This document shows, piece by piece, positions 15,829 through 42,591 of a stretch of 42,698 nucleotides of DNA. The stretch is from sequence record DRR723986_2999. One strand, 5' to 3'. The position numbers were made by a program, and so were the translations under genes. A model generated the notes under the pieces. That model was not told the origin of the DNA and did no database searches. It worked only from the letters and a program-made list of their open reading frames with translations. The first letter of the stretch is position 1. Every line of letters begins with the position of its first letter.

Positions 15829-17457
15829 ATGAGCGACAATCAAGGCATTCCGGATCCGGAAGGCGCCGCCAATCTCATCGACACCGAATACGAGATTGGC
15901 CAGGACAACATCGAAACTTCTGTCGGCCCTTTCAGCCTCGACATCCACAATCCGGTTTTCCTGGTCTCTGGCCTGACCATCGTTGCCTTCGTCTTTCTGA
16001 CCCTTGCCTTTCAGACCGAAGTCGGCCCGATGTTCGATCACCTGCGCAAGTGGCTGACATCGAACCTCGACTGGTTCTTCATCATCTCCGGCAACGTCTT
16101 CGTCCTCGTCTGCCTGGCGCTGATCGTCACCCCCCTCGGCAACGTCCGCATCGGTGGCAAGGACGCCGAGCCCGACTATACCTACTTCGGCTGGTTCGCC
16201 ATGCTGTTCGCCGCCGGCATGGGCATTGGCCTGATGTTCTTCGGCGTTCTGGAACCGGTCTATCACATGGCCTTTTCCGAGCCGATCGGTGTGCCAAAGC
16301 CCTTCGACGCCGACGGCAATATCATTCCGGAAAATGTCGCGGCCGCGAAGGCCATGGGCATGGCCGCAACCATCTTCCACTGGGGCCTGCACCCCTGGGC
16401 GATCTACGCCGTGGTTGCACTCGCTCTTGCGATCTTCTCCTTCAACAAGGGTCTGCCGCTGACCATGCGCTCGGTGTTCTATCCGATTTTCGGTGAGCGC
16501 ACCTGGGGCTGGCCGGGCCATGTCATCGATATCCTGGCCGTGTTCGCGACCCTTTTCGGTCTCGCGACCTCACTTGGCTTTGGCGCCCAGCAGGCAAATG
16601 CAGGTCTCGATTTTGTCTTCGGCATTCCTGTCAGCACCACGGCACAGGTCGTGTTGATCATCGGCATCACCGGCGTTGCGCTTGTCTCGGTTCTGCGTGG
16701 TCTCGACGGCGGCGTGAAAGTTCTGTCGGAAATCAACATGCTGATTGCGGCTCTGCTGCTGGTGTTCGTGATTGCCGCTGGTCCGACCGCAACGCTGGTC
16801 TCCGACTTCTTCTCCAACATTATTGCCTACGGCAGGGAAATCGTACCGCTGTCGATGCCGTTCGGCCGCGAGGACGACAGCTTCCGCCAGGGTTGGACAT
16901 CGTTCTACTGGGCCTGGTGGATTTCCTGGTCGCCGTTTGTCGGCATGTTCATTGCACGCGTCAGCCGTGGCCGCACTGTTCGGGAGTTCATCGTCTGCGT
17001 CCTGATCATTCCGACCATCGTGTCCGTAATCTGGATGACTGCGTTCGGCGGCACCGCCATCGAACAGGTCCTGGCCAGCAACGACAGCCAGGTGCATGAA
17101 TATGTGATCGCAAGCTACAGCCCCGAACTGTCGCTGTTCGGCATGCTTGCCGATCTGCCGATGGCATCGATCACCTCGTTCATCGCCATCATTCTGGTCA
17201 TCGTGTTCTTCGTCACCTCCTCGGACTCCGGCTCTCTGGTGATCGACACGATCACGGCAGGCGGCAAGGTCGATGCGCCGGTGCCGCAGCGCGTGTTCTG
17301 GTGCACCTTCGAAGGTCTGGTCGCCATCGCGCTTCTGCTTGGCGGGGGCCTGGGAGCTCTGCAGGCAATGGCGGTCTCGACAGGGTTCCCCTTCACGATC
17401 GTGCTGTTGCTGGCCTGCTACGCCATCTTCAAGGGTCTGGCGGACGAGCCGCGCTGA
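15829..17457 (+). CDS. BCCT family (betaine/choline/carnitine) transporter
   Basis: WFAMLFAAGMGIGLMFFG, FHWGLHPWAIY, signature WTSFYWAWWISWSPFVGMFIARVSRGRT, FFVTSSDSG. The tryptophan box is intact. Confidence 0.95.
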   Translation: MSDNQGIPDPEGAANLIDTEYEIGQDNIETSVGPFSLDIHNPVFLVSGLTIVAFVFLTLAFQTEVGPMFDHLRKWLTSNLDWFFIISGNVFVLVCLALIVTPLGNVRIGGKDAEPDYTYFGWFAMLFAAGMGIGLMFFGVLEPVYHMAFSEPIGVPKPFDADGNIIPENVAAAKAMGMAATIFHWGLHPWAIYAVVALALAIFSFNKGLPLTMRSVFYPIFGERTWGWPGHVIDILAVFATLFGLATSLGFGAQQANAGLDFVFGIPVSTTAQVVLIIGITGVALVSVLRGLDGGVKVLSEINMLIAALLLVFVIAAGPTATLVSDFFSNIIAYGREIVPLSMPFGREDDSFRQGWTSFYWAWWISWSPFVGMFIARVSRGRTVREFIVCVLIIPTIVSVIWMTAFGGTAIEQVLASNDSQVHEYVIASYSPELSLFGMLADLPMASITSFIAIILVIVFFVTSSDSGSLVIDTITAGGKVDAPVPQRVFWCTFEGLVAIALLLGGGLGALQAMAVSTGFPFTIVLLLACYAIFKGLADEPR

Positions 17458-21799: not shown

Positions 21800-21940
21800 C
21801 GCAACTCAAGTCGTCGATATCAAACACCTGCCACTCCGGCCCTGTCGATAAAGGCAAAGACCGGAGCAACGGCAGGGACCCGCCGAGACGCATGCTCTGA
21901 CCGATTAGTCATATCACGCGCACGGCAGGCTCACATTTTC

Positions 21941-23914
21941 TCACAGGACCAGAGAATCTGCTCCCGTGATCTCGACAAACTGCGGTCGGCTGTCGGGCAG
22001 CTCAAGCTCGTCTGCAAGCGCCGCCAGCGGGTCTGCATCCCTCAACGGTCCGAAATCGAAGCCCGACAGTTCTTCCAGAAAGGCAACGGACACCTGGAAC
22101 GTCTTGTATTCACCAAAGGCGAACCCTTCGACAGCTTCCGACTCGCGGCGGTCCTGCAGGTATTTCTGAATGGCCTGTCCCTGGCTTAACAGATAGGCGG
22201 TCGCGTGCAGGCGAAGACTGCCGTCGTCCTGCAAGGCATCCATCACCACCACTTTCCAGTACTGCAGGGGCAGATTGATGCCGACCCCATCGAGGAACGG
22301 ATCCTCGTCGTCGTCGAAAAGGGGGCCGGTAAAGACCGTTGCCCGGAAGGCATGGGTCTTTGTGCTGTCGAGGATATGGTTTTCCAGACCTTGCCAGGTG
22401 GACCGGTTCTGGTTGAGGGAGGAATGCTGCGGCGAGGCGTTCGTGTAGTGGAACGTATCGTCGTTTGCCAGTTGCGCCACCGGGCGGTCATCGCCCCAGT
22501 TCGGGTCCTCGCGCCGAACCATGTGTCCCCGGTCCAGATCTCCCGGGAAGTCGCCCTTGCCGAGCTGCGCTTCCACCGGAATGCGCCGATCGAAAAACCA
22601 CTTGTCCGGTTTCTTGCGTTTGATCTTGATTGCCTTTTCGCCGTCGATGTTGACGACAGTGACCACGGGGCTTCTGCGATCGACATCATAGAGAAGCCCG
22701 AAGTGGGTATAGCGCAGCTCATGCGGACGGCCGGCGAGCGCATCCGTCGGGCTGGCCAGATTGAACATGCCGTCCGGCAACTTCGGAAAGTCGACCTTTT
22801 TCGACAGGAAGTTGGGATCGTAGCCGTTCCGGCCGATAAAATGGTTCGGGTCGTGGAATCCGTCGGCCACCTCCTGTTCAAGGCTAGCCTCGACCAGGAC
22901 CTGCGTGGGCCGGTTGCCTGACAGAAGGTCCCGCAGCGTGCTCGCCCTGACAGCGCTGTTGGCAATTCCATAGGCTCCGGCGAAGTGCAACCCCACCACC
23001 TTGTTGCGATCAAGGCTCAGGATCGGCGAGCCGGAGTTTCCACCGAGCGTGGTGCAGTCGTGGCTGAGTACGGCTCCCGGCGCAACCGGCATCATCTTGC
23101 CCGGAGCAAACCGCTTCACATCGTAGAGACCCTTGAAATACTTCTCCATTTCGGTGCGATCGTTTCGGCTGTCGAAGGCCGGATAGCCGATCACCGCGAC
23201 GATCTCGTCCGTTTCCGCGTCCGTATCCACCAGAGGCAAGGGCGCAACGGCGAAGCCGGCAGGTTTTTCGATCCGCCCGATCGCGACGTCGGCGCTGGCA
23301 TCATCTGCAAGATAGGTGAAGCGAAGGATCTCGGCCGGGCGCTCGTCTGACGGCAACGCGCCAACCTCTTCGTTGAAATCCACGCGCGCACCGTAACGGA
23401 CCATCGTGAAGGGCGAGCGCATGAAGACGCCCTCTCCCCTGGCGTTTCGGCGTGCGACAATCTTGGCGACGTGCCGGTTGGTCACGACAAGAAGATGCCG
23501 GCCATCGGCTTCTTCTCCAACCACCCAGGCGGTTCCGCCCCAGGTCATCGAGTGGTTGATGAATTCAACCCGCCCGACCGAGCCGATCCAGTGTTCGTTC
23601 CGCTTGATCTTGATGTCTATGTCGGCACCGAACTCATCCGGCAGCGGGATCAGCGAGACCGCGCCGTTTTCAACGACCATCGGCGGCCGGGTAACCAGTC
23701 GCACGATGGCTTCCAGTTGCGTCAACGGCGTGCCGGCGGCTTCAAGCTGGCCGAGGGACATATCCAGCGCATCAAGCGTATCCGGTATGTCCAGTCTAAG
23801 TTGCTCGACAAAGGGGTGTCCTGCCTCGATGGCGCGTTTCGCAGCCTCAAGCCGTCCGCCCGATTTCAATGCTTCGAGCCGTCCCTGACTTTCCAATAAT
23901 GCTCGCGTGTTCAT
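21941..23914 (-). CDS. Trypsin-like serine protease fused to DNA/RNA non-specific endonuclease (EndoG/NucA family)
   Basis: Triad H148 (TNRHV), D209 (ADVAI), S294 (TTLGGNSGS). The nuclease has DRGH (H464) and TFHYTNASPQ...LNQ..W.GLEN. Strong GGAGGA Shine-Dalgarno upstream. Confidence 0.92.
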   Translation of the reverse strand: MNTRALLESQGRLEALKSGGRLEAAKRAIEAGHPFVEQLRLDIPDTLDALDMSLGQLEAAGTPLTQLEAIVRLVTRPPMVVENGAVSLIPLPDEFGADIDIKIKRNEHWIGSVGRVEFINHSMTWGGTAWVVGEEADGRHLLVVTNRHVAKIVARRNARGEGVFMRSPFTMVRYGARVDFNEEVGALPSDERPAEILRFTYLADDASADVAIGRIEKPAGFAVAPLPLVDTDAETDEIVAVIGYPAFDSRNDRTEMEKYFKGLYDVKRFAPGKMMPVAPGAVLSHDCTTLGGNSGSPILSLDRNKVVGLHFAGAYGIANSAVRASTLRDLLSGNRPTQVLVEASLEQEVADGFHDPNHFIGRNGYDPNFLSKKVDFPKLPDGMFNLASPTDALAGRPHELRYTHFGLLYDVDRRSPVVTVVNIDGEKAIKIKRKKPDKWFFDRRIPVEAQLGKGDFPGDLDRGHMVRREDPNWGDDRPVAQLANDDTFHYTNASPQHSSLNQNRSTWQGLENHILDSTKTHAFRATVFTGPLFDDDEDPFLDGVGINLPLQYWKVVVMDALQDDGSLRLHATAYLLSQGQAIQKYLQDRRESEAVEGFAFGEYKTFQVSVAFLEELSGFDFGPLRDADPLAALADELELPDSRPQFVEITGADSLVL

Positions 23915-24070
23915 GGAAATTCCTCCAATATCAATGTCTGTATTATTGTCCGGTATTCCCCATAGGTTCGGGCATCGACGAGGCTTGCGGCCTTGCCGGA
24001 AACACGGAACCTGAACAGTGCCCGGTTCTCTCCTTTCTTTCGTGTTTGACGAACCTGCAAACGCACGCGA

Positions 24071-27000
24071 CTAGAACAATGTCGACGCGTCGACCGGTTC
24101 GTTTCTTTTCGCAGCATCAGCCCCGATCACGGCCAACGCCGCTGTCAGGGCTGGCCCCATGAGCCTGGGTGCAAGGGCAGCTGCAATGTCCTGGGCAGAG
24201 CCCGCGGTCATCGCCATTGCCAGCGGCCGCATCAGCCGTCGCTCGAAAACACTCCGGGCACGCCGGGCCCCTTCTTCCGTGTCGGGATAGTCGGCCGCAT
24301 AGGCCAATCGCCGCAACAGCGCCCGGGCGGTTGCTGGCGGATCCTTCCGCGAAAGCAGACTGGTGACCCGCGCCATCAGCAAGACATCGCTCTCGCCGTT
24401 GCCCCAGTAAGACGGCGGCGTACCCGGGTAGGACCAGATACCGCCACTGAAGCGACGCCACCGTTCGGCCGCCCGCGCAACCGTCGGCGCATCCGGAACA
24501 GCATTGAACACTGCAAATGCCCCTACCCAGTCGCAGGTAAGGCCCAGTGCCCCCAGAATTTCCGGTCCTTCGATCTCGATGTCGCTGGAATAGCGTTCGA
24601 AACTGTCGAAGAGATCAGGCGTTCCCAGCATCTCCAGCGTTTCATGCAACCCCTCGTAAAAGCCGCGCAGATATTGCGCCATGCGCGGACTGTGCTGAAT
24701 GCGTGCAAGAACGCTCAAGGGCGCGATCGCAGGGTTCATTCGGGCAATGGTGTGCTGATCCGTGTCGGGATGCTGCTGTCCGGTCATGATCGCAAACCGC
24801 TCGGCGCGGTTGGCACCCTGCCGGATTGCATCTGCCGGGTACTCCGAAACCCTCTCGCCGAACCTGAAGACGGACATGGCAACCGGATCCAGGATCTCCA
24901 CATACTCCGGCCGCCCTTCCTGGCTGGCCATGAGAGCGAATTCCAGCGCCCCTTTCAGGGCAATCCTGGAACCCTCGGAACGCGCCTGCCAGGCTGTTGC
25001 CGCCAGTTTTTCATCACCACGCAACCGGGCGACAAGTCCGTCGAAATCCGCTTCCGCCTCGATTTCCAGCAGGACCAGCCCGTAGAGGCCCGGGTCTTCC
25101 CGGCTCAATCGTTCCAGCAGGGATTTCGGCAGCTTCCGCCAAAGGGACATGGCCCGCGCCCACTGGCCGGAGAGCCAGAAATACGCAAGCGTGGCAGCAG
25201 CTTCGGGACGGGAAGGTAACGGATTTCGCGGAAAGGCGTTGTTGAGGGTGAAGATATGATCGGCCTCGAACACATCGCCCCGCCGAAGGGTCAGTTCGAG
25301 TTCGCGGATCAGTTCCGGCTCGACCTCCTCCGCTTTCGAAGTCGGAACCGGTTCGGATGTTCCCTGCTCGCTGCTGGTGTAGCGCGCGCGGCGCGAGCGT
25401 TCCCCGCGCTCCTGCAGAATGGCATTCGTCGCCGGAAGAGGAAGTTCGTCCAGTTCATCTTCGCTGAGGCCCGCAACGTCGGCTGCGGTGAATTCGGGCA
25501 TCGGGTCTCCGGCACGCGTCACCTGGAAGGCATGATAGAGCGCGGTCTCACGGTCAAACCCGGCAAACCAGTTTGCTGCCGCCCGGTCTATTCTTGCGGC
25601 CAGCTCCGGCTTTTCGACGTAGAGCATGGGCAGGATTTCCCGCCGCAGGTCGCTGCGGTGTTTCAGCCAGTCCTGACCGTCAACGGCCACCAGCCAATGG
25701 TGGCTGCTGAGTTCCTGCCAAAGTCGCCTGGACGCAGCTTCGTCGATATGCTCACCGAGCCCGAGCGCCGGCGCCAGAACGAACTGGATTGCCTCGGCGC
25801 TGATCCGGCGCAGGACAAGACCAGGGTGTGCCAGCTTCGCCAGCAGCGGGTCGTCAATGCGCGAAAGGATAGCCCGGTAAAGATAGGCTTCCGTGATGCT
25901 GCCTGCTTCGCCGTATTCCAGTTCGCCCGGATCGAAGTCCTCCGCCTGCGTTACCTTGGCTGAAAGCCGCAGCATCAGCGGGTTGCCACGCGAAAGTTCG
26001 AAGATCCTGTCATGCAAATCCGGCGGAGCCCCCAACTTGTCCAGAAGATTGCGGGATTCCGTCTCGCTCAGACCTTCCAGCTCCAGAGGCGGTCCCTCGA
26101 TGCGTTTGCGGACGGAATCGAGCGCATCTCCCCGTCCGGCCGCAATGATCGAGATCGGCGACAGCCCGGCCCGCACCAGATTGTCCAGAACCTCGAACAG
26201 CAGAATGGGCCGGGTTTCGCCATGACCGCGCAACACTTCAAGCGTATCCAGCACCAGGACCACCTGCCCGCCATGCGAGCGCACCGCAGCGCCCATGGCA
26301 TCGACCAGCTCGGTCGGCAAAAGGGTACTGCTCACCGTCGTGCCGGTCGTTTCCGCATTGCCGGAATACTTGAGCCTCAGGTCGCGCAGTCTGGGGGCTT
26401 CGTCTGTCAGGATGTCACCCAGCTGGCGGGAGAGCTCATGCACCAGCTTGTCGGGATCTTCCAGGTTCAGCCCGCGCCGGTCGAAGTCCAGGCGCAGAAC
26501 GATTGGCGCCTTTTGAACAGACCTGTGTTCCGCCATTGCCCGGTCAATCAGAAAGGATTTGCCGATGCCCGGCAGGCCGGTGATGAACAAGGCGCTGACA
26601 GGTGTTTTTTCCTGAGGCCGCGCGCACCAGTCGAGCAAGCGGGCCAGTTCCTTCTCCCGGCCAAAAAACTCTCGGCTCAGCATGGCATTGGCCCGCCTTG
26701 CTGCATCCACGCGGTTCATGACACCGCGCAGGCGCACCAGCAACGGATAGGCAGGCGCACTCGGTCCGGCCCTGTCGAGGTCATCGGATATCTCCTCGAT
26801 CCGTTTGAGCTGATCCTGCTCGGGCAGATCCGGAGTCTCCGCAATCAGTCGTTCGATGGTCTCCTGCGAGAACGGTTCGTCACCACGCAGGGCTCTGGCA
26901 ACAGGTGTGTCTTCCTCCGGTGTTTCGATGGTCTTGAGCACACCATGGCGAGGCCCGTTGCGAAGAGACCAGACCGGCTCGGAGGATATTTCCAGGACGA

Positions 27001-27169
27001 CCTTGTTGAGCTCTGTCAGCAGCCGGGCAATCGTCAATGGCGTCAGCTTGTCCTGCAAGACCTTGGACGCCGCCTCCACCGCATCACGCGGCGTGAAGGT
27101 TTTGCGCGTTGCGGCAAACCGCATGGCCGCCTTCAGGCCTTCCGCGAGCTGATCAGCGTCCTTGCTCAT
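24071..27169 (-). CDS. STAND-class (NLR-like) P-loop NTPase with C-terminal helical/TPR-like region
   Basis: FFGRE, Walker A GLPGIGKS (K204), Walker B VVLVLD (D308), sensor IIAAGR, LEGLS, GxP motif RGNPL, winged-helix end KHRSDLRR, ALYH, then about 450 aa of helical sequence. Confidence 0.85.
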   Translation of the reverse strand: MSKDADQLAEGLKAAMRFAATRKTFTPRDAVEAASKVLQDKLTPLTIARLLTELNKVVLEISSEPVWSLRNGPRHGVLKTIETPEEDTPVARALRGDEPFSQETIERLIAETPDLPEQDQLKRIEEISDDLDRAGPSAPAYPLLVRLRGVMNRVDAARRANAMLSREFFGREKELARLLDWCARPQEKTPVSALFITGLPGIGKSFLIDRAMAEHRSVQKAPIVLRLDFDRRGLNLEDPDKLVHELSRQLGDILTDEAPRLRDLRLKYSGNAETTGTTVSSTLLPTELVDAMGAAVRSHGGQVVLVLDTLEVLRGHGETRPILLFEVLDNLVRAGLSPISIIAAGRGDALDSVRKRIEGPPLELEGLSETESRNLLDKLGAPPDLHDRIFELSRGNPLMLRLSAKVTQAEDFDPGELEYGEAGSITEAYLYRAILSRIDDPLLAKLAHPGLVLRRISAEAIQFVLAPALGLGEHIDEAASRRLWQELSSHHWLVAVDGQDWLKHRSDLRREILPMLYVEKPELAARIDRAAANWFAGFDRETALYHAFQVTRAGDPMPEFTAADVAGLSEDELDELPLPATNAILQERGERSRRARYTSSEQGTSEPVPTSKAEEVEPELIRELELTLRRGDVFEADHIFTLNNAFPRNPLPSRPEAAATLAYFWLSGQWARAMSLWRKLPKSLLERLSREDPGLYGLVLLEIEAEADFDGLVARLRGDEKLAATAWQARSEGSRIALKGALEFALMASQEGRPEYVEILDPVAMSVFRFGERVSEYPADAIRQGANRAERFAIMTGQQHPDTDQHTIARMNPAIAPLSVLARIQHSPRMAQYLRGFYEGLHETLEMLGTPDLFDSFERYSSDIEIEGPEILGALGLTCDWVGAFAVFNAVPDAPTVARAAERWRRFSGGIWSYPGTPPSYWGNGESDVLLMARVTSLLSRKDPPATARALLRRLAYAADYPDTEEGARRARSVFERRLMRPLAMAMTAGSAQDIAAALAPRLMGPALTAALAVIGADAAKRNEPVDASTLF

Positions 27170-28908
27170 GGCGATGATGCTCCTTCGGCCGGAAGCAACG
27201 GTGCGAGAGACCTTTGCAGATTTTCCGAGACGGTTTTCACTTCCGCACTGCGATAGACCGTTCCCTGGGCTTGCACGCCGTGAAGGGCCTGCATCAGAAC
27301 GAAATCGACCACATGCGTCGGCAGGCCAAGCCCCAGCGATCGGTTGATCGCCTCAAGCGTATGACGCACATCCTCGCGGTCGAACTGGCCGATGTAATCC
27401 ACCATCACCCCCGGCCCGGTCAGCGCACTGGCATTTTCCGCCTTTGGCCCCGGAACGCTGTATGTCTCTCCACCGGCCATGACAAATCGAAGGCGCGTAT
27501 CGCTCAGGATCATTGCCAGAAGCAGTTCCAGTTGCTGTTGTGCCGCCTTGCGCAAGCCTCCGCGCGGATTGTCGAAATAAATCCAGCTCGGCTTGTCCGC
27601 GGTTGCGCCGGTCGTCTTGGCCAGGAGGTCCACCAGTTGTCTGGCGCGGTCCTTGTCGCTTGCCCCTTCACTGGTTTCGTCGTCCGCAGCCCCCGGCCGT
27701 GCCAGCAGCGGCGTTCCGCCGTGCAATCTCTCGTTCAGCGTTTCCAGCAGGTCTTCCATTCCCAGAGACAGTTCAACCCTGAACACCTGCGCCGCTTGAC
27801 CGTTCTGCGCCAGAACCTGACACAAGAGATCGTAGGAAAATTCAAGACCGGTCGTCTGGTCGATTTCCATCCGCTTGATCCAGATCCCGCGCAAGTGACG
27901 GGCGGCTCCCCGCACCACGTCATGGATGGCATGACAATAGCGCTGCCGTCCGATAATCAGATGACCATCGACACGCCCTGTCAGCGAATAGATGTAAGGC
28001 GGTGCCCGGTCCTCCGCAATTGCCTGGGTAAATTCCTCTATGCCAGCGAAGGTGGCGTAAGGAACGATCTCGGAAACGCCGTTCAGCTGTCCCTGATGGA
28101 AGCCTGCGAATGCAAGATCCGTGTCGAAAACCGACCCGCCTGACGACCCGGGTTTGGTGACGCCGTCCTCCCATTCCAGTTGGATACGAGGAGGATCATC
28201 GATCGTCGCCCGACCGGTAACGAAGGTGACGCCCCTGCCGTTGTCGTCCTGTCTGTGGCTCAGGCAAAGCTTTCTCCGCCCGGTGATCCACGCCGGAGGT
28301 TTCGCCGGCAATTCGTAATACGTTGTCATCGGTTGCTCGATGGCGAGCAAGGCGACATCCGGGTTGGCACGCAGGATATCCCCGTCCTGCAGGCCGACAT
28401 CCCATTGATCGTCATGGCAAGGCATCTCGAAACGCACACCAAGCACGCGCAGCGACTTGCTCCCTTCTTGCGTGCGAACCGTGAGGCCGGACCGGCGCTC
28501 CTTCCGCTTGTCCTTGACCGTCACATGCCAGGCGGTCAGCGCGAGCCGGTGAGACACGAGTGTCGCGATACCGCAAAATCCTATTTCATCGAAAACATAC
28601 AGCTTGAAGCCCAGCATCTTGTGCGCGAAATCACCGAGATCCTCGAGGTCGAAATTGGCGGCGTTGATCGGCTCGATTGGTTGGGTGAGGTGGAACATGA
28701 ACTCCCAGCCGAGATTTTCCTCGTTCAGAAAATCAGCCAGCAGTTCTTCAAGAGGCTGCCCGGTGATGCCCGCCGTGCTGCGCAAGGCATCCAGCGTCAT
28801 CAGGGAATCCGTGAACCCCTGAACCCGGCGCAACACCCTGTCGACAGCCGCTTCATTCTGCTCCAGATGCTGCTTCAGCTCTGCACTGGTTACCGGCATG
28901 ACCAACAC
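27166..28908 (-). CDS. Trypsin-like serine protease fused to a degenerate STAND-like P-loop domain
   Basis: Triad H128 (TAWHV), D184 (PDVALL), S256 (TKPGSSGG). The C-terminal half has IIGRQ, a degenerate Walker A (DQTTGLEFS), Walker B-like WIYFDN and LRFVMAG. Stop overlaps the next start (ATGA at 27166-27169). Confidence 0.8.
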   Translation of the reverse strand: MLVMPVTSAELKQHLEQNEAAVDRVLRRVQGFTDSLMTLDALRSTAGITGQPLEELLADFLNEENLGWEFMFHLTQPIEPINAANFDLEDLGDFAHKMLGFKLYVFDEIGFCGIATLVSHRLALTAWHVTVKDKRKERRSGLTVRTQEGSKSLRVLGVRFEMPCHDDQWDVGLQDGDILRANPDVALLAIEQPMTTYYELPAKPPAWITGRRKLCLSHRQDDNGRGVTFVTGRATIDDPPRIQLEWEDGVTKPGSSGGSVFDTDLAFAGFHQGQLNGVSEIVPYATFAGIEEFTQAIAEDRAPPYIYSLTGRVDGHLIIGRQRYCHAIHDVVRGAARHLRGIWIKRMEIDQTTGLEFSYDLLCQVLAQNGQAAQVFRVELSLGMEDLLETLNERLHGGTPLLARPGAADDETSEGASDKDRARQLVDLLAKTTGATADKPSWIYFDNPRGGLRKAAQQQLELLLAMILSDTRLRFVMAGGETYSVPGPKAENASALTGPGVMVDYIGQFDREDVRHTLEAINRSLGLGLPTHVVDFVLMQALHGVQAQGTVYRSAEVKTVSENLQRSLAPLLPAEGASSP

Positions 28909-29197
28909 CGTATCGAGAATCGTTAAAACAATGGAGCCTGTCTCTTCGAGCCGGCACGTCAGTCAACCGCCGACGGTCGGATGAGAATATGCGTCTTGTC
29001 GGTCAAAATACGGCCAACCGCACGTTCTCCCAGGCTTCGGAACCTAAGGACACAATTATAGCGTCATTCAAGCTGAAAATAAACGCACAAGTATACGCCG
29101 ACTGATGCGGCCGCAGACGCTGAAAAGGACGGTCCTGTGCTCGCAGCAAAGCAACAGGTATCGTCCTCATTCCACTCGTCCTGACGCCGAAACCCGT

Positions 29198-29536
29198 TTA
29201 CCGAACGAATTCGACGGTCACGAAAACAAGTTCCGCTTCACCCGTGTTGGTGAGATCGTGCACGAAGGCCGTATCCGGCGACAGATCCGACATATGCCGG
29301 GTATCACCCGCCCTGTAGGTCACGTCCAGAATGCGGCCATCCGCCTGACGAGAAGTCGCCTTGCCATCGGTCAGGACGCTCCAGAAATAAGGCCGCTCGT
29401 GCCGGTGGGCGGGCAGTGTCTCTCCCGGCGCCAGTCGAAGATGCCAGACTTTCACGCCGTTTACTTCCGACACCAGATGCGTCCCGACCCTGTCGGTCGC
29501 CATTGCGATCTCTGCCTTGCTCATTGGGTTGGTCAT
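29198..29536 (-). CDS. Cupin domain protein
   Basis: LAPGE.LPAHRH and HDLTNTG...LVFVTVEF. ATGA overlap with the OYE stop. Confidence 0.85.
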   Translation of the reverse strand: MTNPMSKAEIAMATDRVGTHLVSEVNGVKVWHLRLAPGETLPAHRHERPYFWSVLTDGKATSRQADGRILDVTYRAGDTRHMSDLSPDTAFVHDLTNTGEAELVFVTVEFVR

Positions 29537-30624
29537 GCTGCCACCGGATAGCTTGTGTAACCTGCGGCATCGCCACCGAAGAGCGTCGACCCGTCGAAAT
29601 CGGCAAGCGGCAATCCATCCGCCAGGCGGCGCGGAAAGTCCGGGTTCGCGATGAAAGGACGACCGAAGGCAACGAGGTCCGCATATCCATCTGCAAGGAT
29701 CCGGTCTGCCTTCACCTTGGTATAGCCACCGGCAACAATGACGGTACCGGAGTAGACCTCTCGCAAGGCAGCCCGGAAGCTTTCGGGCGTTTCAGGCGCG
29801 TCGTCCCAATCGGCCTCGGCAAGATGAACATAGGCAAGACCGATCTTGTCCAGTTCCCCGGCGAGCTTCAGGATCGTCTCAGGTGCTGCCGGATCGTCCA
29901 TGCCGCGCTGGGTGATGAAGGGTGAAAAGCGAATGCCGGTCCGCTCCGCCCCCATGACTTTTGAAACGGCATCGGCCACTTCCCGCGCAAACCGGATGCG
30001 GTTTTCCTGACTGCCGCCATAAGCATCCGTCCGCCGATTGGAGGTCGATCGCAGGAATTCGTCGATCAGATACCCATTGGCGGCATGGATCTCGACACCG
30101 TCAAACCCGGCTGCCCTGGCGTTGGCTGCAGCTGTCTGGTAGTCCTCGACGATGGCAGAAATCTCTTCAGCCGTGAGTGCTCGCGGAACGGGACATTCGA
30201 TCATGCCACCCTGCCCGGTCTCCGGATCAACCGCCCAGATGGACGCACCCGGGGCGATGGCCGAAGGAGCGACCGGCTGGCCTCCACCCTGGAACTGGGC
30301 ATGGCTCATGCGGCCGACATGCCAGAGCTGCAACACCATGCGTCCGCCTTTTTGGTGAACGGCGTCCGTCACCTTGCGCCAGCCATCGACCTGTTCCGCC
30401 GAATGGATACCGGGAGTGAGGCTGTAACCCTGGCCCTGCGGTGAGATCTGCGTGGCCTCGCTGACAATCATCCCGGCGCTTGCCCGTTGGGCGTAATAGT
30501 CCGCCATCATGTCATTGGGCACATTGCCCGGCTGCGTACTGCGCGAGCGCGTCATGGGAGCCATCACGATGCGCGACGGCAGGGCAAGCGGACCGAGGTC
30601 ATATCGGTCGAACAGGCTGGTCAT
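29533..30624 (-). CDS. Old Yellow Enzyme family alkene reductase (NemA-like)
   Basis: MAPMTRSR, YYAQRAS, QLWHVGR, EIHAANGYL (HxxN and Tyr), FGRPFIANPD. Start MTSLF at 30624. Confidence 0.94.
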   Translation of the reverse strand: MTSLFDRYDLGPLALPSRIVMAPMTRSRSTQPGNVPNDMMADYYAQRASAGMIVSEATQISPQGQGYSLTPGIHSAEQVDGWRKVTDAVHQKGGRMVLQLWHVGRMSHAQFQGGGQPVAPSAIAPGASIWAVDPETGQGGMIECPVPRALTAEEISAIVEDYQTAAANARAAGFDGVEIHAANGYLIDEFLRSTSNRRTDAYGGSQENRIRFAREVADAVSKVMGAERTGIRFSPFITQRGMDDPAAPETILKLAGELDKIGLAYVHLAEADWDDAPETPESFRAALREVYSGTVIVAGGYTKVKADRILADGYADLVAFGRPFIANPDFPRRLADGLPLADFDGSTLFGGDAAGYTSYPVAA

Positions 30625-35961: not shown

Positions 35962-37122
35962 TCAGTCCTTGACCTTGAGTGCCCCTGCAAGCAGTGGAAT
36001 GGCAACCGTCAGCACCGCAACGGTGACGAACGACGCTCTCAGCGAGAGATAGTCGCCAACAAAGCCCAGCAGCGGCGGACCGAACAGAAAAGCTCCATAG
36101 CCAAGTGTCGCAACGGCCGCAAGGGCAGCCCCTTTCGACATGTGCGGATCACTGGCTGCCCGCGACATGGCAAGCGGAAACAGCACCGCATATCCAAGGC
36201 CCATCACGAAACAACCGGCCCACACAGACCACAGACCTGCGCCGGAGACCAGCAGGATGCACCCGAGCAGCGCGACGATACCACTGACCCGCGCGGTCGG
36301 CACCGGCCCGAAGCGGGCGATCACCTTGTCACCGGACAGGCGCATGATCACCATGGCGATAGAGAAAATCGTGAAAGCGGCGGGCGCGATCGACTCGGCA
36401 ATGCCAAGATCCTCAATCTGATAGAGCGCGGCCCAGTCCGTTACTGCGCCCTCGCCCAGCGCTGCCACCAGCGCCATCAGCCCGACCAGCACCAGAGCCC
36501 CCTTGGGCAGCGCGAAAAGCGGTGCCTTGCTGCCATCTTCGTTTTCCGTCTTGGTCTGCGGCCAGGATTGGCGCCAATACCAGACAAGGAATGGCGCCGC
36601 GACGATGCCCCACAGGACAAAATGCGACAGCACGCTGAGATCCGCCATGATCGCAAGCCCGCCGGCCAGGGCAGCAACACCCGCACCCAGGCTGTACAGC
36701 CCGTGATAGGAGGACATGATCGGACGCTCCAGCGCCTTTTCCACTTCAGCACCCCAGCCGTTCATGGAAATATCCAGCGCACCAATGCTCAGCCCTGCCA
36801 GGAACAATGCCGCTGTCAGCAAGGCCACGTTGGGCGAAAGACCGATCAGAACGAAACTGATGATGTTGGCGACCGCCAGCAACTTTGTCATGGGGGCCGC
36901 GCCCAGGCGGTCGATCAGCATTCCGGTTATGGGAAAGGCGACAAACGCACCGCAAGCCATGACAAGCAGAAGAATGCCGAAGCCACTTTCATCGAGACCG
37001 GTTGCAGACTTGATATTGGGAATTCGCGATGCCCACGTACCGATACTGGTTCCGCACATGAAGAAGATCGCCGAAACGACACGACGCGCGGCAATGGCTT
37101 GGCGCTGAATTGAAACTGACAT
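35962..37122 (-). CDS. MFS transporter
   Basis: About twelve TM helices, WASRIP, IDRLG, DISMN, IMSSYHG, EGAVTDW, GPPLLG. Confidence 0.9.
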   Translation of the reverse strand: MSVSIQRQAIAARRVVSAIFFMCGTSIGTWASRIPNIKSATGLDESGFGILLLVMACGAFVAFPITGMLIDRLGAAPMTKLLAVANIISFVLIGLSPNVALLTAALFLAGLSIGALDISMNGWGAEVEKALERPIMSSYHGLYSLGAGVAALAGGLAIMADLSVLSHFVLWGIVAAPFLVWYWRQSWPQTKTENEDGSKAPLFALPKGALVLVGLMALVAALGEGAVTDWAALYQIEDLGIAESIAPAAFTIFSIAMVIMRLSGDKVIARFGPVPTARVSGIVALLGCILLVSGAGLWSVWAGCFVMGLGYAVLFPLAMSRAASDPHMSKGAALAAVATLGYGAFLFGPPLLGFVGDYLSLRASFVTVAVLTVAIPLLAGALKVKD

Positions 37123-37300
37123 GGAGCTAACATTTTCTGGGAGGGCGAGCGCCCGAAAGGGAGCCGTCTTTCTGTCACGCAAGTGCCAGCCTGACAAGCA
37201 TCATTCCGGGTGAAATGAGCAGCGCCTTAAACCAGCTTCCGCGATAGGAAAAAATGCCTGCAGCCAGGTCTCGATTCTACGCGGGACCAGGATTGCCGGC

Positions 37301-41142: not shown

Positions 41143-42591
41143 ATGCCAAGCGTGAGCAAAAAACTCTATTCCGGCCACACGTTGAGGCAAATCCGCTCGG
41201 ATTTCGGCCTTTCCCAAGTGGAGTTTGCAAAGAAAATCGGCCTGTCCACCGCCTATGTGAACCAGATCGAAAACAACAACCGCCCGGTCACCGCCTCGGT
41301 GTTGCTAACGATTAACAGGATCTTTGGCGTCGATCTGTCGGCTTTCGAGCAGAACGACCTCGACCGGGTGGTGCAGGATCTTCAGGAAATTTTCGCCGAC
41401 ACCCAGTTTCTGACAGCCTCCGTCGGCCGGCAAGAAGTGCATGAGCTGGTCACTCGGGCACCAGGCGTCACCAAGGCGATCATGGATCTTTACGGCGCGC
41501 TGCGGACCTATCACGACCGGGAAGCGAACGAGGACGATCTGGTCCAGCTCGGCGGTAGTCCGGAAAGCGGTCCCGGACCTCGGAAATCCGCTTATGAAGA
41601 GGTCCGCGACTATTTCCACTACATGGACAATTACGTCGACAGCATCGACCGGGCCGCAGAGAAGCTCTCTCTGGAGATCGGACTTTCGAAAGCCCCTTCG
41701 AAGTTCACCGCCCTGACCACCTGGCTTCAGGAACGCTTCGGTATATCGGTCACGGAATTTCCGGACTATCGAGGCACGTTGATCCGTCAGGACGATTTCG
41801 CCCGCACCATCGCGCTCTACAGTGCCATTCCGCAATCGACCAAGAGCTTCCTGCTTGGGTCAGTCGTCGCCGAACTGTGTGTGCGGGACCTCATTTCGGA
41901 AGAGGTCACCAGGGCAAGGTTCAAGACCAAGTCGGCGGAAAGCATCGCGCGGCTGGCCTTGCGGAACTATTTCGCGGGCGCCTTGATTCTGGCCTATGAC
42001 GACTTCCTGAAAACCGCTGCGGAAACCCGGCACGACATCCAGCTTCTGTCCAACCGGTTGGACGCAAGTATCGAGACCGTCTGCCACCGTCTATCGACCC
42101 TGCAACGCCCCGGCGCCAAAGGTCTGCCGTTCTACTTCGTGAAGATCGACCGGGCCGGCAACGTCGTCAAACGCCACAGCGCAACCCGGTTTCAGTTCGC
42201 CCGCTTCGGCGGCTCCTGCCCGCGCTGGAACGTCCATCAGGCCTTTGAACAGAACTCCAACAAGTTCACCTCGCAGGTCGCCCAGATGCCTGACGGAGTA
42301 CGCTATCTTTGCGTGGCGACCAGCATCACCAAACACCAGCCGGACTACCGCAGCGGCGAGCGCCGCTACGCGCTTGGTATCGGCTGCGAGGTGCAATATG
42401 CCGATGCGGTGGTCTATGCCGACGGGCTTGCGGTCGACGAGATCTCCTCGCCCGAGCCCATTGGCGTCAACTGCCGCATCTGCCCTAGGGACAATTGCGA
42501 CCAGCGCGCCTTCCCGGCCGTCGACAAGGAACCTTTCATCGATTCTGGCCAGCGCGGTATCGTTCCGTATCGGGTGAAAGCGGCGGATTAG
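41143..42591 (+). CDS. Short-chain fatty acyl-CoA regulator (ScfR family; RamB/PccR/PrpR-like)
   Basis: XRE HTH (LSQVEFA..IGLS.AYVNQIENNNRP), ETVCHRLSTLQRPG, DRAGNV.KR.SA, GGSCPRW, C-terminal CRICPRDNCDQRAFP. GTG at 41152 is an alternative start. Confidence 0.93.
   Translation: MPSVSKKLYSGHTLRQIRSDFGLSQVEFAKKIGLSTAYVNQIENNNRPVTASVLLTINRIFGVDLSAFEQNDLDRVVQDLQEIFADTQFLTASVGRQEVHELVTRAPGVTKAIMDLYGALRTYHDREANEDDLVQLGGSPESGPGPRKSAYEEVRDYFHYMDNYVDSIDRAAEKLSLEIGLSKAPSKFTALTTWLQERFGISVTEFPDYRGTLIRQDDFARTIALYSAIPQSTKSFLLGSVVAELCVRDLISEEVTRARFKTKSAESIARLALRNYFAGALILAYDDFLKTAAETRHDIQLLSNRLDASIETVCHRLSTLQRPGAKGLPFYFVKIDRAGNVVKRHSATRFQFARFGGSCPRWNVHQAFEQNSNKFTSQVAQMPDGVRYLCVATSITKHQPDYRSGERRYALGIGCEVQYADAVVYADGLAVDEISSPEPIGVNCRICPRDNCDQRAFPAVDKEPFIDSGQRGIVPYRVKAAD

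Follow-up and report, generated by a model that had tools for sequence, protein, structure and literature searches.

A chromosomal three-gene locus of the CARD-NLR kind, resembling Caulobacter LypABC, in the Roseibium/Stappia group

The window analysed here, a stretch of 42,698 nucleotides (nt) from sequence record DRR723986_2999, carries on its minus strand three co-oriented genes, A, B, and C, which almost certainly make up a CARD-NLR system of the three-gene, trypsin-NucA effector type and are orthologous to LypABC of Caulobacter. [quoted passage not shown] Gene B (24071 to 27169), the LypB homologue, encodes a protein of 1032 aa with a helical N-terminal domain (NTD), a STAND/NLR-like NTPase, and a long helical C-terminal region, and gene C (21941 to 23914), the LypC homologue, encodes a protein of 657 aa in which a trypsin-like protease is followed by an Endonuclease_NS domain. 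These coordinates had been given by a first-pass annotation, made from the letters of the window alone, and correspond exactly to entries in its list of open reading frames (ORFs); the ATGA shared by the stop codon of A and the start codon of B, by which the same annotation coupled the two genes, is likewise present in the sequence.

The first-pass annotation had seen in these genes an operon for an NLR-like STAND NTPase, a pair of trypsin-like proteases, and a nuclease of the EndoG/NucA type, a description upheld by the domains detected, by the wide co-occurrence of the three genes, and by their fusions. It had also not recognised the architecture as that of a named, characterised system, a view that is not supported: the locus is orthologous to LypABC and fits both the CARD operons with three genes reported by Wein et al. 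(2023) and the NucA-peptidase system of Kaur et al. (2020). The annotation was thus right as to the kind of system and wrong as to its novelty. The locus is already known in kind, being an ordinary member of the CARD-NLR/LypABC/NucA-peptidase family.

Orthology to LypABC and conservation of the three-gene unit

The lypABC genes of Caulobacter crescentus emerged from a transposon sequencing (Tn-seq) screen and act in lysis mediated by gene transfer agents (GTAs) (Banks et al. 2026, Nat Microbiol, PMC13236601). According to that account, LypA consists of a CARD (aa 1 to 80), a trypsin-like peptidase, and an ATPase domain that is divergent and has no Walker motifs; LypB of an N-terminal domain, an AAA+ ATPase, and TPR-like repeats; and LypC of a trypsin-like peptidase and an endonuclease. 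DefenseFinder calls lypABC a CARD-NLR, a family present in ~0.35% of genomes (PMC13236601). For comparison we used locus L042, from Caulobacter vibrioides DSM 9893, whose three ORFs encode 592, 1027, and 662 aa from ATG starts and carry LypA S262, T356, S360, and F361, LypB K230 and D335, and LypC S296, H471, and N505. Because these residues sit exactly at the positions mutated by Banks et al., L042 is lypABC.

All three proteins of the window align with those of L042: A with LypA at 28.5% identity (BLASTP E = 1.6e-41; S256 = S262, T352 = T356, and F357 = F361), B with LypB at 34% identity (E = 3.6e-84; K204 = K230 and D308 = D335), and C with LypC at 55% identity (E = 0; S294 = S296, H464 = H471, and N501 = N505). 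The two loci therefore have the same three genes in the same order and with matching domain architecture, the divergent ATPase-like domain of A being putative, and the functional residues mutated in LypABC align, the lone non-conserved one being LypA S360, which is a glutamate in A (E356). They differ in this substitution, in the host of A-B-C, which belongs to the Roseibium/Stappia group, and in that the nearest genome to that host lacks the GTA markers tested.

Other described systems resemble the locus to varying degrees. Wein et al. (2023, PMC10312443; subsequently in Nature 2025) reported three-gene operons, of the type in Azospirillum sp. TSO35-2, encoding a CARD-protease, an ATPase, and trypsin-fused effectors, enriched beside defence systems, and solved the crystal structure of an N-terminal domain from Azospirillum (8SS1). 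The N-terminal model of A is closest to this domain, although sequence similarity between the CARD region of A and 8SS1 is not detectable. Related four-gene systems defend against phage, those of Lysobacter and Pedobacter having been tested (PMC10312443). The gasdermin operon of Lysobacter enzymogenes encodes two trypsin-like proteases, the essential one with an N-terminal CARD-like domain, and a STAND ATPase (PMC10312443); it shares with A-B-C this NLR-like ATPase and protease pair, and a death effector that is likewise activated in a protease-dependent manner, but differs in being a four-gene operon with a separate gasdermin gene, whereas in A-B-C the nuclease is fused to the second protease. 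The computationally defined NucA-peptidase "System 3" of Kaur et al. (2020, eLife, PMC7159879), which includes bDLD2 and is mostly alphaproteobacterial, has the same fusion of NucA/Endonuclease_NS with trypsin, plus a second trypsin paralogue with a Death-like domain and STAND module; STAND was treated as accessory there, whereas it is a constant core gene in A-B-C and LypABC. These authors proposed a proteolytic cascade that deploys the nuclease (PMC7159879). A comparable idea applies to the protease-activated pro-nucleases of Hachiman, AVAST, and the canu system (Tuck et al., Science 2025, PMC12799240), in which defence involves a trypsin-like or caspase protease that activates a latent nuclease to degrade DNA indiscriminately. 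These systems are not homologous to A-B-C; their nuclease is of the metallo-beta-lactamase type and encoded by a separate gene, and they have no CARD-like domain.

The three genes also occur together far beyond the window. We retrieved 45 related loci from species genomes with a profile of 23 B homologues and mapped their genes by tblastn: the order A-B-C is kept in 40 of the 45, from Alpha-, Beta-, and Gammaproteobacteria, Actinomycetota, and Chloroflexia, so that the co-occurrence check proposed by the first-pass annotation comes out in its favour. Hosts include Roseibium aggregatum and Stappia (89 to 91% identity), many Rhodobacteraceae and Paracoccaceae, Rhizobiales, Acetobacteraceae, Sphingomonadales, and Caulobacter, as well as four Pseudomonas, two Burkholderia, Kribbella, an actinomycetotal metagenome-assembled genome (MAG), and two Chloroflexia MAGs. 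In 43 loci, B is directly preceded by the C-terminal domain of A; one of the two exceptions is cut by a contig end, and the other (L025) has no more than a weak trypsin-like ORF. The N-terminal half of A was detected in 39. C, in both its halves, directly follows B in 40 loci; it is missing from three that end just past B and truly absent from two with full flanks (L037, Sphingobium, and L039, Sphingomonas). Across loci, C is the most conserved protein (~50% identity), followed by B (~33%) and the N-terminal half of A (~27%).

Variants of the unit include both fusions and altered effectors. A search with B yielded 287 relatives among 8000 candidates scored, including forms of 1741 and 1759 aa with trypsin, AAA_16, and Endonuclease_NS. 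B is fused to C in L019 (9728 to 14917, a 1729-aa ORF with AAA_16, Trypsin_2, and Endonuclease_NS) and in P0012 and P0048, the latter two keeping C from its first residues and all three B-C forms its helical N-terminal region; A is fused to B in P0174, P0182, and P0186; and all three regions stand in order in the 2277-aa P0195. Frameshift artefacts are possible in all of these fused forms, metagenomic gene calls among them. Directly upstream of A in L037 (6810 to 8183) is a gene for a 457-aa LCAT/DUF676-like alpha/beta-hydrolase, and Metallophos and SMC_N (SbcCD-like) genes follow B, a layout that looks like an effector swap and that is similar in L039 by tblastn. In a Roseibium MAG (L005, 13287 to 16355), the C homologue reaches 1022 aa, with an extra C-terminal DUF900 alpha/beta-hydrolase after the nuclease.

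Domain architecture of A, B, and C

Gene A more probably starts at the ATG at 28899, three codons inside the GTG, because database records begin at residue 4 and homologues align from that methionine. Its product falls into three regions: a predicted six-helix death-fold (CARD-like) domain (aa 1 to ~85; 28654 to 28908, minus strand), an S1 serine protease of the V8/glutamyl-endopeptidase-like kind with the triad H128, D184, and S256 (aa ~100 to 290; 28039 to 28611, minus strand), and a conserved region (aa ~300 to 580; 27169 to 28011, minus strand) homologous to the divergent ATPase domain of LypA, which has neither a Walker A nor a Walker B motif. The first-pass annotation had recognised the trypsin and an additional domain in this protein and missed the N-terminal CARD-like one.

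The N-terminal assignment comes from structure prediction. Folded by AlphaFold2 from an alignment of 30 homologues, residues 1 to 105 of A form six helices at a predicted local distance difference test (pLDDT) score of 78.8. When this model was compared by VIA-align with 48,161 chains of the PDB, the first-ranked match was 8ss1_A, the bacterial death-like domain of Azospirillum sp. (Z 7.0, middling by the tool's scale; root mean square deviation 4.3; 76 residues aligned), followed by a CARD (9frr, Z 5.9), the PYD of NLRP14 (5.5), the CARD of ARC (5.3), and the CARD of NOD1 (5.2); CARD, PYD, or death domain (DD) entries, as counted from titles, made up 35 of the top 50 rows. The small helical N-terminus of C, which served as a control, yielded no death-fold row among its top 50. 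The middling Z score counts against a CARD-like call, and we therefore place weight on the identity of the top match and on the enrichment of the list. Counting against it also is Foldseek, which gave no match to the A model at E ≤0.001 (the RIPK1 death domain ranked 13th, at E = 5.2), and structural comparison of the model with the 68 chains from Foldseek added nothing further. PDB sequence searches with A, whether as a single sequence or as whole-protein and N-terminal profiles, returned no CARD entry; a match to 7rdr was dismissed as a repeat artefact. On balance, the N-terminus of A is predicted to be a death-fold (CARD-like) domain.

The protease of A matches Pfam Trypsin_2 weakly (E = 1.5e-4, under the curated cut-off), but Trypsin_2 is present in all 31 A homologues examined, and a profile built from these 31 matches glutamyl endopeptidases of the V8 type in the PDB at E = 1e-10. 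The catalytic triad, which the first-pass annotation had reported as intact, is invariant in 31 of 31. No paralogy between A and C is detectable by BLASTP. As for the degenerate STAND-like domain that the same annotation placed in A, what stands is a region homologous to the divergent ATPase domain of LypA; a relationship to the NTPase of B was not significant by hhalign (probability 1.8%, E = 0.027). Neither the iSTAND nor the bDLD models of Pfam match A, and feature matches of its C-terminal domain to iSTAND clusters in the ESM Atlas (0.91 to 0.92) are a lead only.

B is divided into a helical NTD (aa ~1 to 165), an NTPase (aa ~167 to 400) containing Walker A K204 and Walker B D308, and the helical C-terminal region. 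Its Pfam matches are AAA_16 (E = 2e-11) and NPHP3_N, with NACHT below threshold (18.7 bits versus a cut-off of 26.7). Residues G198, G201, G203, K204, and S205 of Walker A (GxxGxGKS) are invariant in 23 of 23 homologues, as are D308 of Walker B, R346, and P397, so that the Walker motifs, sensor arginine, and GxP motif are intact, as previously annotated. Two alternative assignments of B found no support: for Avs/AVAST, no PADLOC-DB v2.0.0 family is matched at E ≤0.1, and for bNACHT, the Pfam NACHT match is below threshold and the only PADLOC "nacht" match is to the protease region of C. LypB itself is placed in a clade separate from bNACHT, according to the legend of Fig. 4c in Banks et al. 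(PMC13236601). A distinct, distantly related STAND NTPase is encoded in another genome of the genus (G016, contig C6, 63503 to 64564), with 31% identity over aa 193 to 531 of B (E = 3.9e-21).

C comprises a helical N-terminal region (aa 1 to 78), a trypsin-like domain (aa ~110 to 335), a variable linker, and a DRGH nuclease (aa ~350 to 630). Within this single ORF, Pfam detects Trypsin_2 (E = 4e-14, aa 127 to 309) and Endonuclease_NS (E = 6e-45, aa 389 to 623), whereas matches in PADLOC-DB v2 are at the protease level only (to "nacht," LmuA, and two PDC models), and an NCBIfam scan of A, B, and C gave nothing useful. None of the 35 homologues, from several phyla, departs from C in the protease triad (H148, D209, and S294), the nuclease motif (D461-R462-G463-H464), N472, or N501, which are among 106 invariant columns in total; the first-pass annotation had called this triad intact and named the DRGH nuclease. 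The AlphaFold2 model of C residues 1 to 125 (pLDDT 73.7) found its best match, at Z 5.2, in an unrelated protein in the same 48,161-chain comparison and, as no death-fold rows appear in its top 50 structural matches, we refrain from calling this modelled helical region a CARD, without reading the result as a negative.

Genomic context, distribution, and hints of transcription

The locus is a discrete, patchily distributed module in housekeeping DNA and does not lie in a defence island. By Pfam, one side of it holds genes for a LacI-type regulator, an OmpA-family protein, a YkuD transpeptidase, an EamA transporter, and ogt, and the other side holds an OYE-type flavin oxidoreductase (Oxidored_FMN), an SDR, and a LysR regulator; the remainder of the window also consists of housekeeping genes. 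The neighbours named in the first-pass annotation are confirmed for ogt and the OYE gene but not for a cupin: the 148-aa ORF at 29105 to 29551 (plus strand), divergent from A, has no Pfam match. Elsewhere in the window, two AT-skew excursions coincide with transporter genes, one of -0.27 (16001 to 17000) with a BCCT transporter gene (15829 to 17457, plus strand) and one of +0.32 (36001 to 37000) with an MFS transporter gene (35962 to 37197, minus strand), and both are ordinary membrane-protein composition. A regulator gene combining HTH_3, Peptidase_M78 (IrrE-like), and ScfRs (41143 to 42591, plus strand), at the right end of the window, is unrelated to the locus.

Among 25 genomes of the same genus, strong full-length matches to B were found in three (G001, 99%; G004, 91%; and G021, 48%), with a fourth genome having a partial, weaker STAND match only; none was found in 16 genomes of other families of the order. 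With a 16.2-kb query, G001 contains the whole region at 98% identity. G004 shares only the left flank and window positions 21941 to ~29100, and in three further genomes of the genus the left flank is preserved as far as the end of ogt, but A, B, and C are lacking. More broadly, the A family is a small one: of 1.84 billion representative clusters, 122 match at E ≤1e-3 and 64 at E ≤1e-30.

Between 58 and 74% of the sampled words of the locus occur in 14 RNA-labelled runs from five studies, and contigs from four of the five span A-B-C fully, at 95 to 99% identity. In each of these four studies, a contig ends at 29035 to 29090, which is 130 to 180 nt upstream of A. Such contigs report presence only, neither strand nor level, and carry-over of DNA into the libraries is possible; we read them as a weak hint of transcription and of its 5′ boundary. 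Together with the end of the block shared by G004, the contig ends mark the upstream noncoding region (28909 to 29100, no strand assigned) as a possible 5′ boundary of the transcription unit. A scan for sigma-70 consensus promoters and terminators produced nothing above shuffled controls, with none in 28909 to 29100. The strain in one run (X8) has a 53-nt deletion in the intergenic spacer between ogt and C (window positions 21869 to 21923).

Mechanism, rival explanations, and significance

The best explanation, and one that we consider probable, is that the locus is a CARD-NLR of the LypABC type, in which B triggers the activation of A and C and the outcome is abortive infection. B would be an NLR-like STAND ATPase, autoinhibited until a phage- or stress-derived cue reaches its helical C-terminal region; on ATP-dependent activation, its NTD would engage the CARD-like domain of A and gather A protease molecules; and the active proteases of A and C would then trigger death before the phage cycle completes, with the DRGH nuclease of C, the proteolysis of host targets, or the two combined as the means of killing. 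Gene anatomy, orthology, synteny, conserved catalytic residues, and the predicted death fold belong to A-B-C itself. The need for the protease and ATPase sites and the binding of CARD to NTD are, by analogy, expected from work on homologues: LypA S262A, LypB K230A, LypB D335A, LypB without its NTD, and LypC S296A each abolish lysis, the CARD of LypA binds the NTD of LypB in two-hybrid assays, and overexpression is toxic and kills cells (PMC13236601). The trigger, the step in which A would cleave C, and a defence role in this host we infer. The sequence of events put forward in the first-pass annotation (B activates A, A cleaves C, and the nuclease is freed) is reasonable but unproven, and goes back to a proposal of 2020.

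Several points weigh against this explanation. PADLOC-DB v2.0.0 contains no family matching A or B at E ≤0.1, and the window, with its housekeeping neighbours, is no defence island. The one orthologue studied genetically acts in GTA-mediated lysis (PMC13236601), and the available portions of the Wein, Banks, and Kaur texts report no anti-phage phenotype for the three-gene NucA subtype. The absence of GTA markers applies to near relatives only. In Caulobacter, moreover, LypC binds neither LypA nor LypB in two-hybrid assays, and its nuclease residues are dispensable for lysis (H471A and N505A; PMC13236601). The latter result leads to an alternative that we regard as possible but unlikely: the system and its activation would be the same, but the nuclease would not be the killer, lysis being caused by the A and C proteases acting on host targets, with NucA structural or secondary. 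It would explain why H471A and N505A leave lysis unaffected while S296A abolishes it, it accommodates the downstream lytic effector proposed by Banks et al. and the destabilisation of LypC upon deletion of its nuclease domain (PMC13236601), and it suits the variants with other effector domains, namely the LCAT-like hydrolase gene in place of C in L037 and the DUF900 added to C in L005. Yet the DRGH motif, N472, and N501 of C are unchanged in all 35 homologues across phyla, which argues that nuclease activity is under selection, and the Caulobacter assay scored ghost-cell lysis rather than DNA degradation or phage defence (PMC13236601).

The remaining alternatives dispense with defence altogether. 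A role in releasing GTAs or other phage-like particles, like that of lypABC in Caulobacter crescentus, seems to us most improbable for the locus. Orthology to LypABC speaks for this role, as does the predominance of Alphaproteobacteria, a class known for RcGTA-type agents, among the related loci, and two same-genus genomes carry GTA marker families. However, these two genomes (G005 and G006), which have both GTA_TIM and DUF2460, in two copies each in G005, are without the locus, and neither marker was found in G001 (99% complete) or G004, whose B proteins are 99% and 91% identical to that of the window. G021 has DUF2460, and GTA_TIM was not found in it, nor in the carrier genomes of R. aggregatum (L002), Pseudomonas (L020), Burkholderia (L027), and Kribbella (L031), whereas the Caulobacter genome contains it (E = 1.4e-142). 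Most carriers tested are thus without an RcGTA-type cluster by these queries. Very unlikely, too, is a module for cell death or regulation, triggered by stress or development and without ties to mobile elements, or an inert, silent remnant, notwithstanding the housekeeping chromosomal context and the association of the NucA system with a multicellular or colonial habit in Table 1 of Kaur et al. (PMC7159879): the catalytic motifs are all intact and the genes are under clear purifying selection, the whole locus is present in contigs of RNA-labelled libraries from four studies, and its patchy distribution is typical of conflict systems. Given the missing GTA markers and the invariant nuclease site, we therefore favour a cell-suicide defence role of A-B-C, as proposed by Wein et al., over GTA release.

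Within this defensive reading, the sequences suggest a more specific, if doubtful, possibility: a two-step, glutamate-directed zymogen cascade that would operate in hosts free of GTAs, as this one probably is. The two proteases resemble V8-type glutamyl endopeptidases in profile matches, and both keep the Thr/Ser and His positions that we take to be the P1-glutamate binders of that family (T/S289 and H310 of C in all 35 homologues; T/S251 of A in 22 of 31 and H271 in all 31). The N-terminal region of C contains the pairs L57-E58 (33 of 35) and E68-A69 (35 of 35), with conserved Glu-Ala/Ser, and immediately beyond the variable linker, where the nuclease domain starts, is E348-A349 (30 of 35), making E58, E68, and E348 candidate processing sites. 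Even B-C and A-B-C fusions keep this N-terminal region, which suits a pro-domain better than it does a docking module. If the proposal is true, cutting at E58, E68, or E348, by A or by C itself, would remove the pro-domain or free the nuclease; such a site would be the first defined activation site in a CARD-NLR system and would reconcile an invariant nuclease with its dispensability for lysis in Caulobacter. The general idea of a protease cascade belongs to the earlier papers and is unproven.

As a discovery, then, the locus is not new: it is one more chromosomal example of the rare bacterial CARD-NLR family. Its value is modest and comparative: the nearest genome of its lineage is negative for the GTA markers tested, yet the locus keeps all catalytic residues. 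These include the nuclease site that is dispensable in Caulobacter, and A-B-C is therefore a reasonable system in which to study the role of the nuclease and the activation of the second protease.

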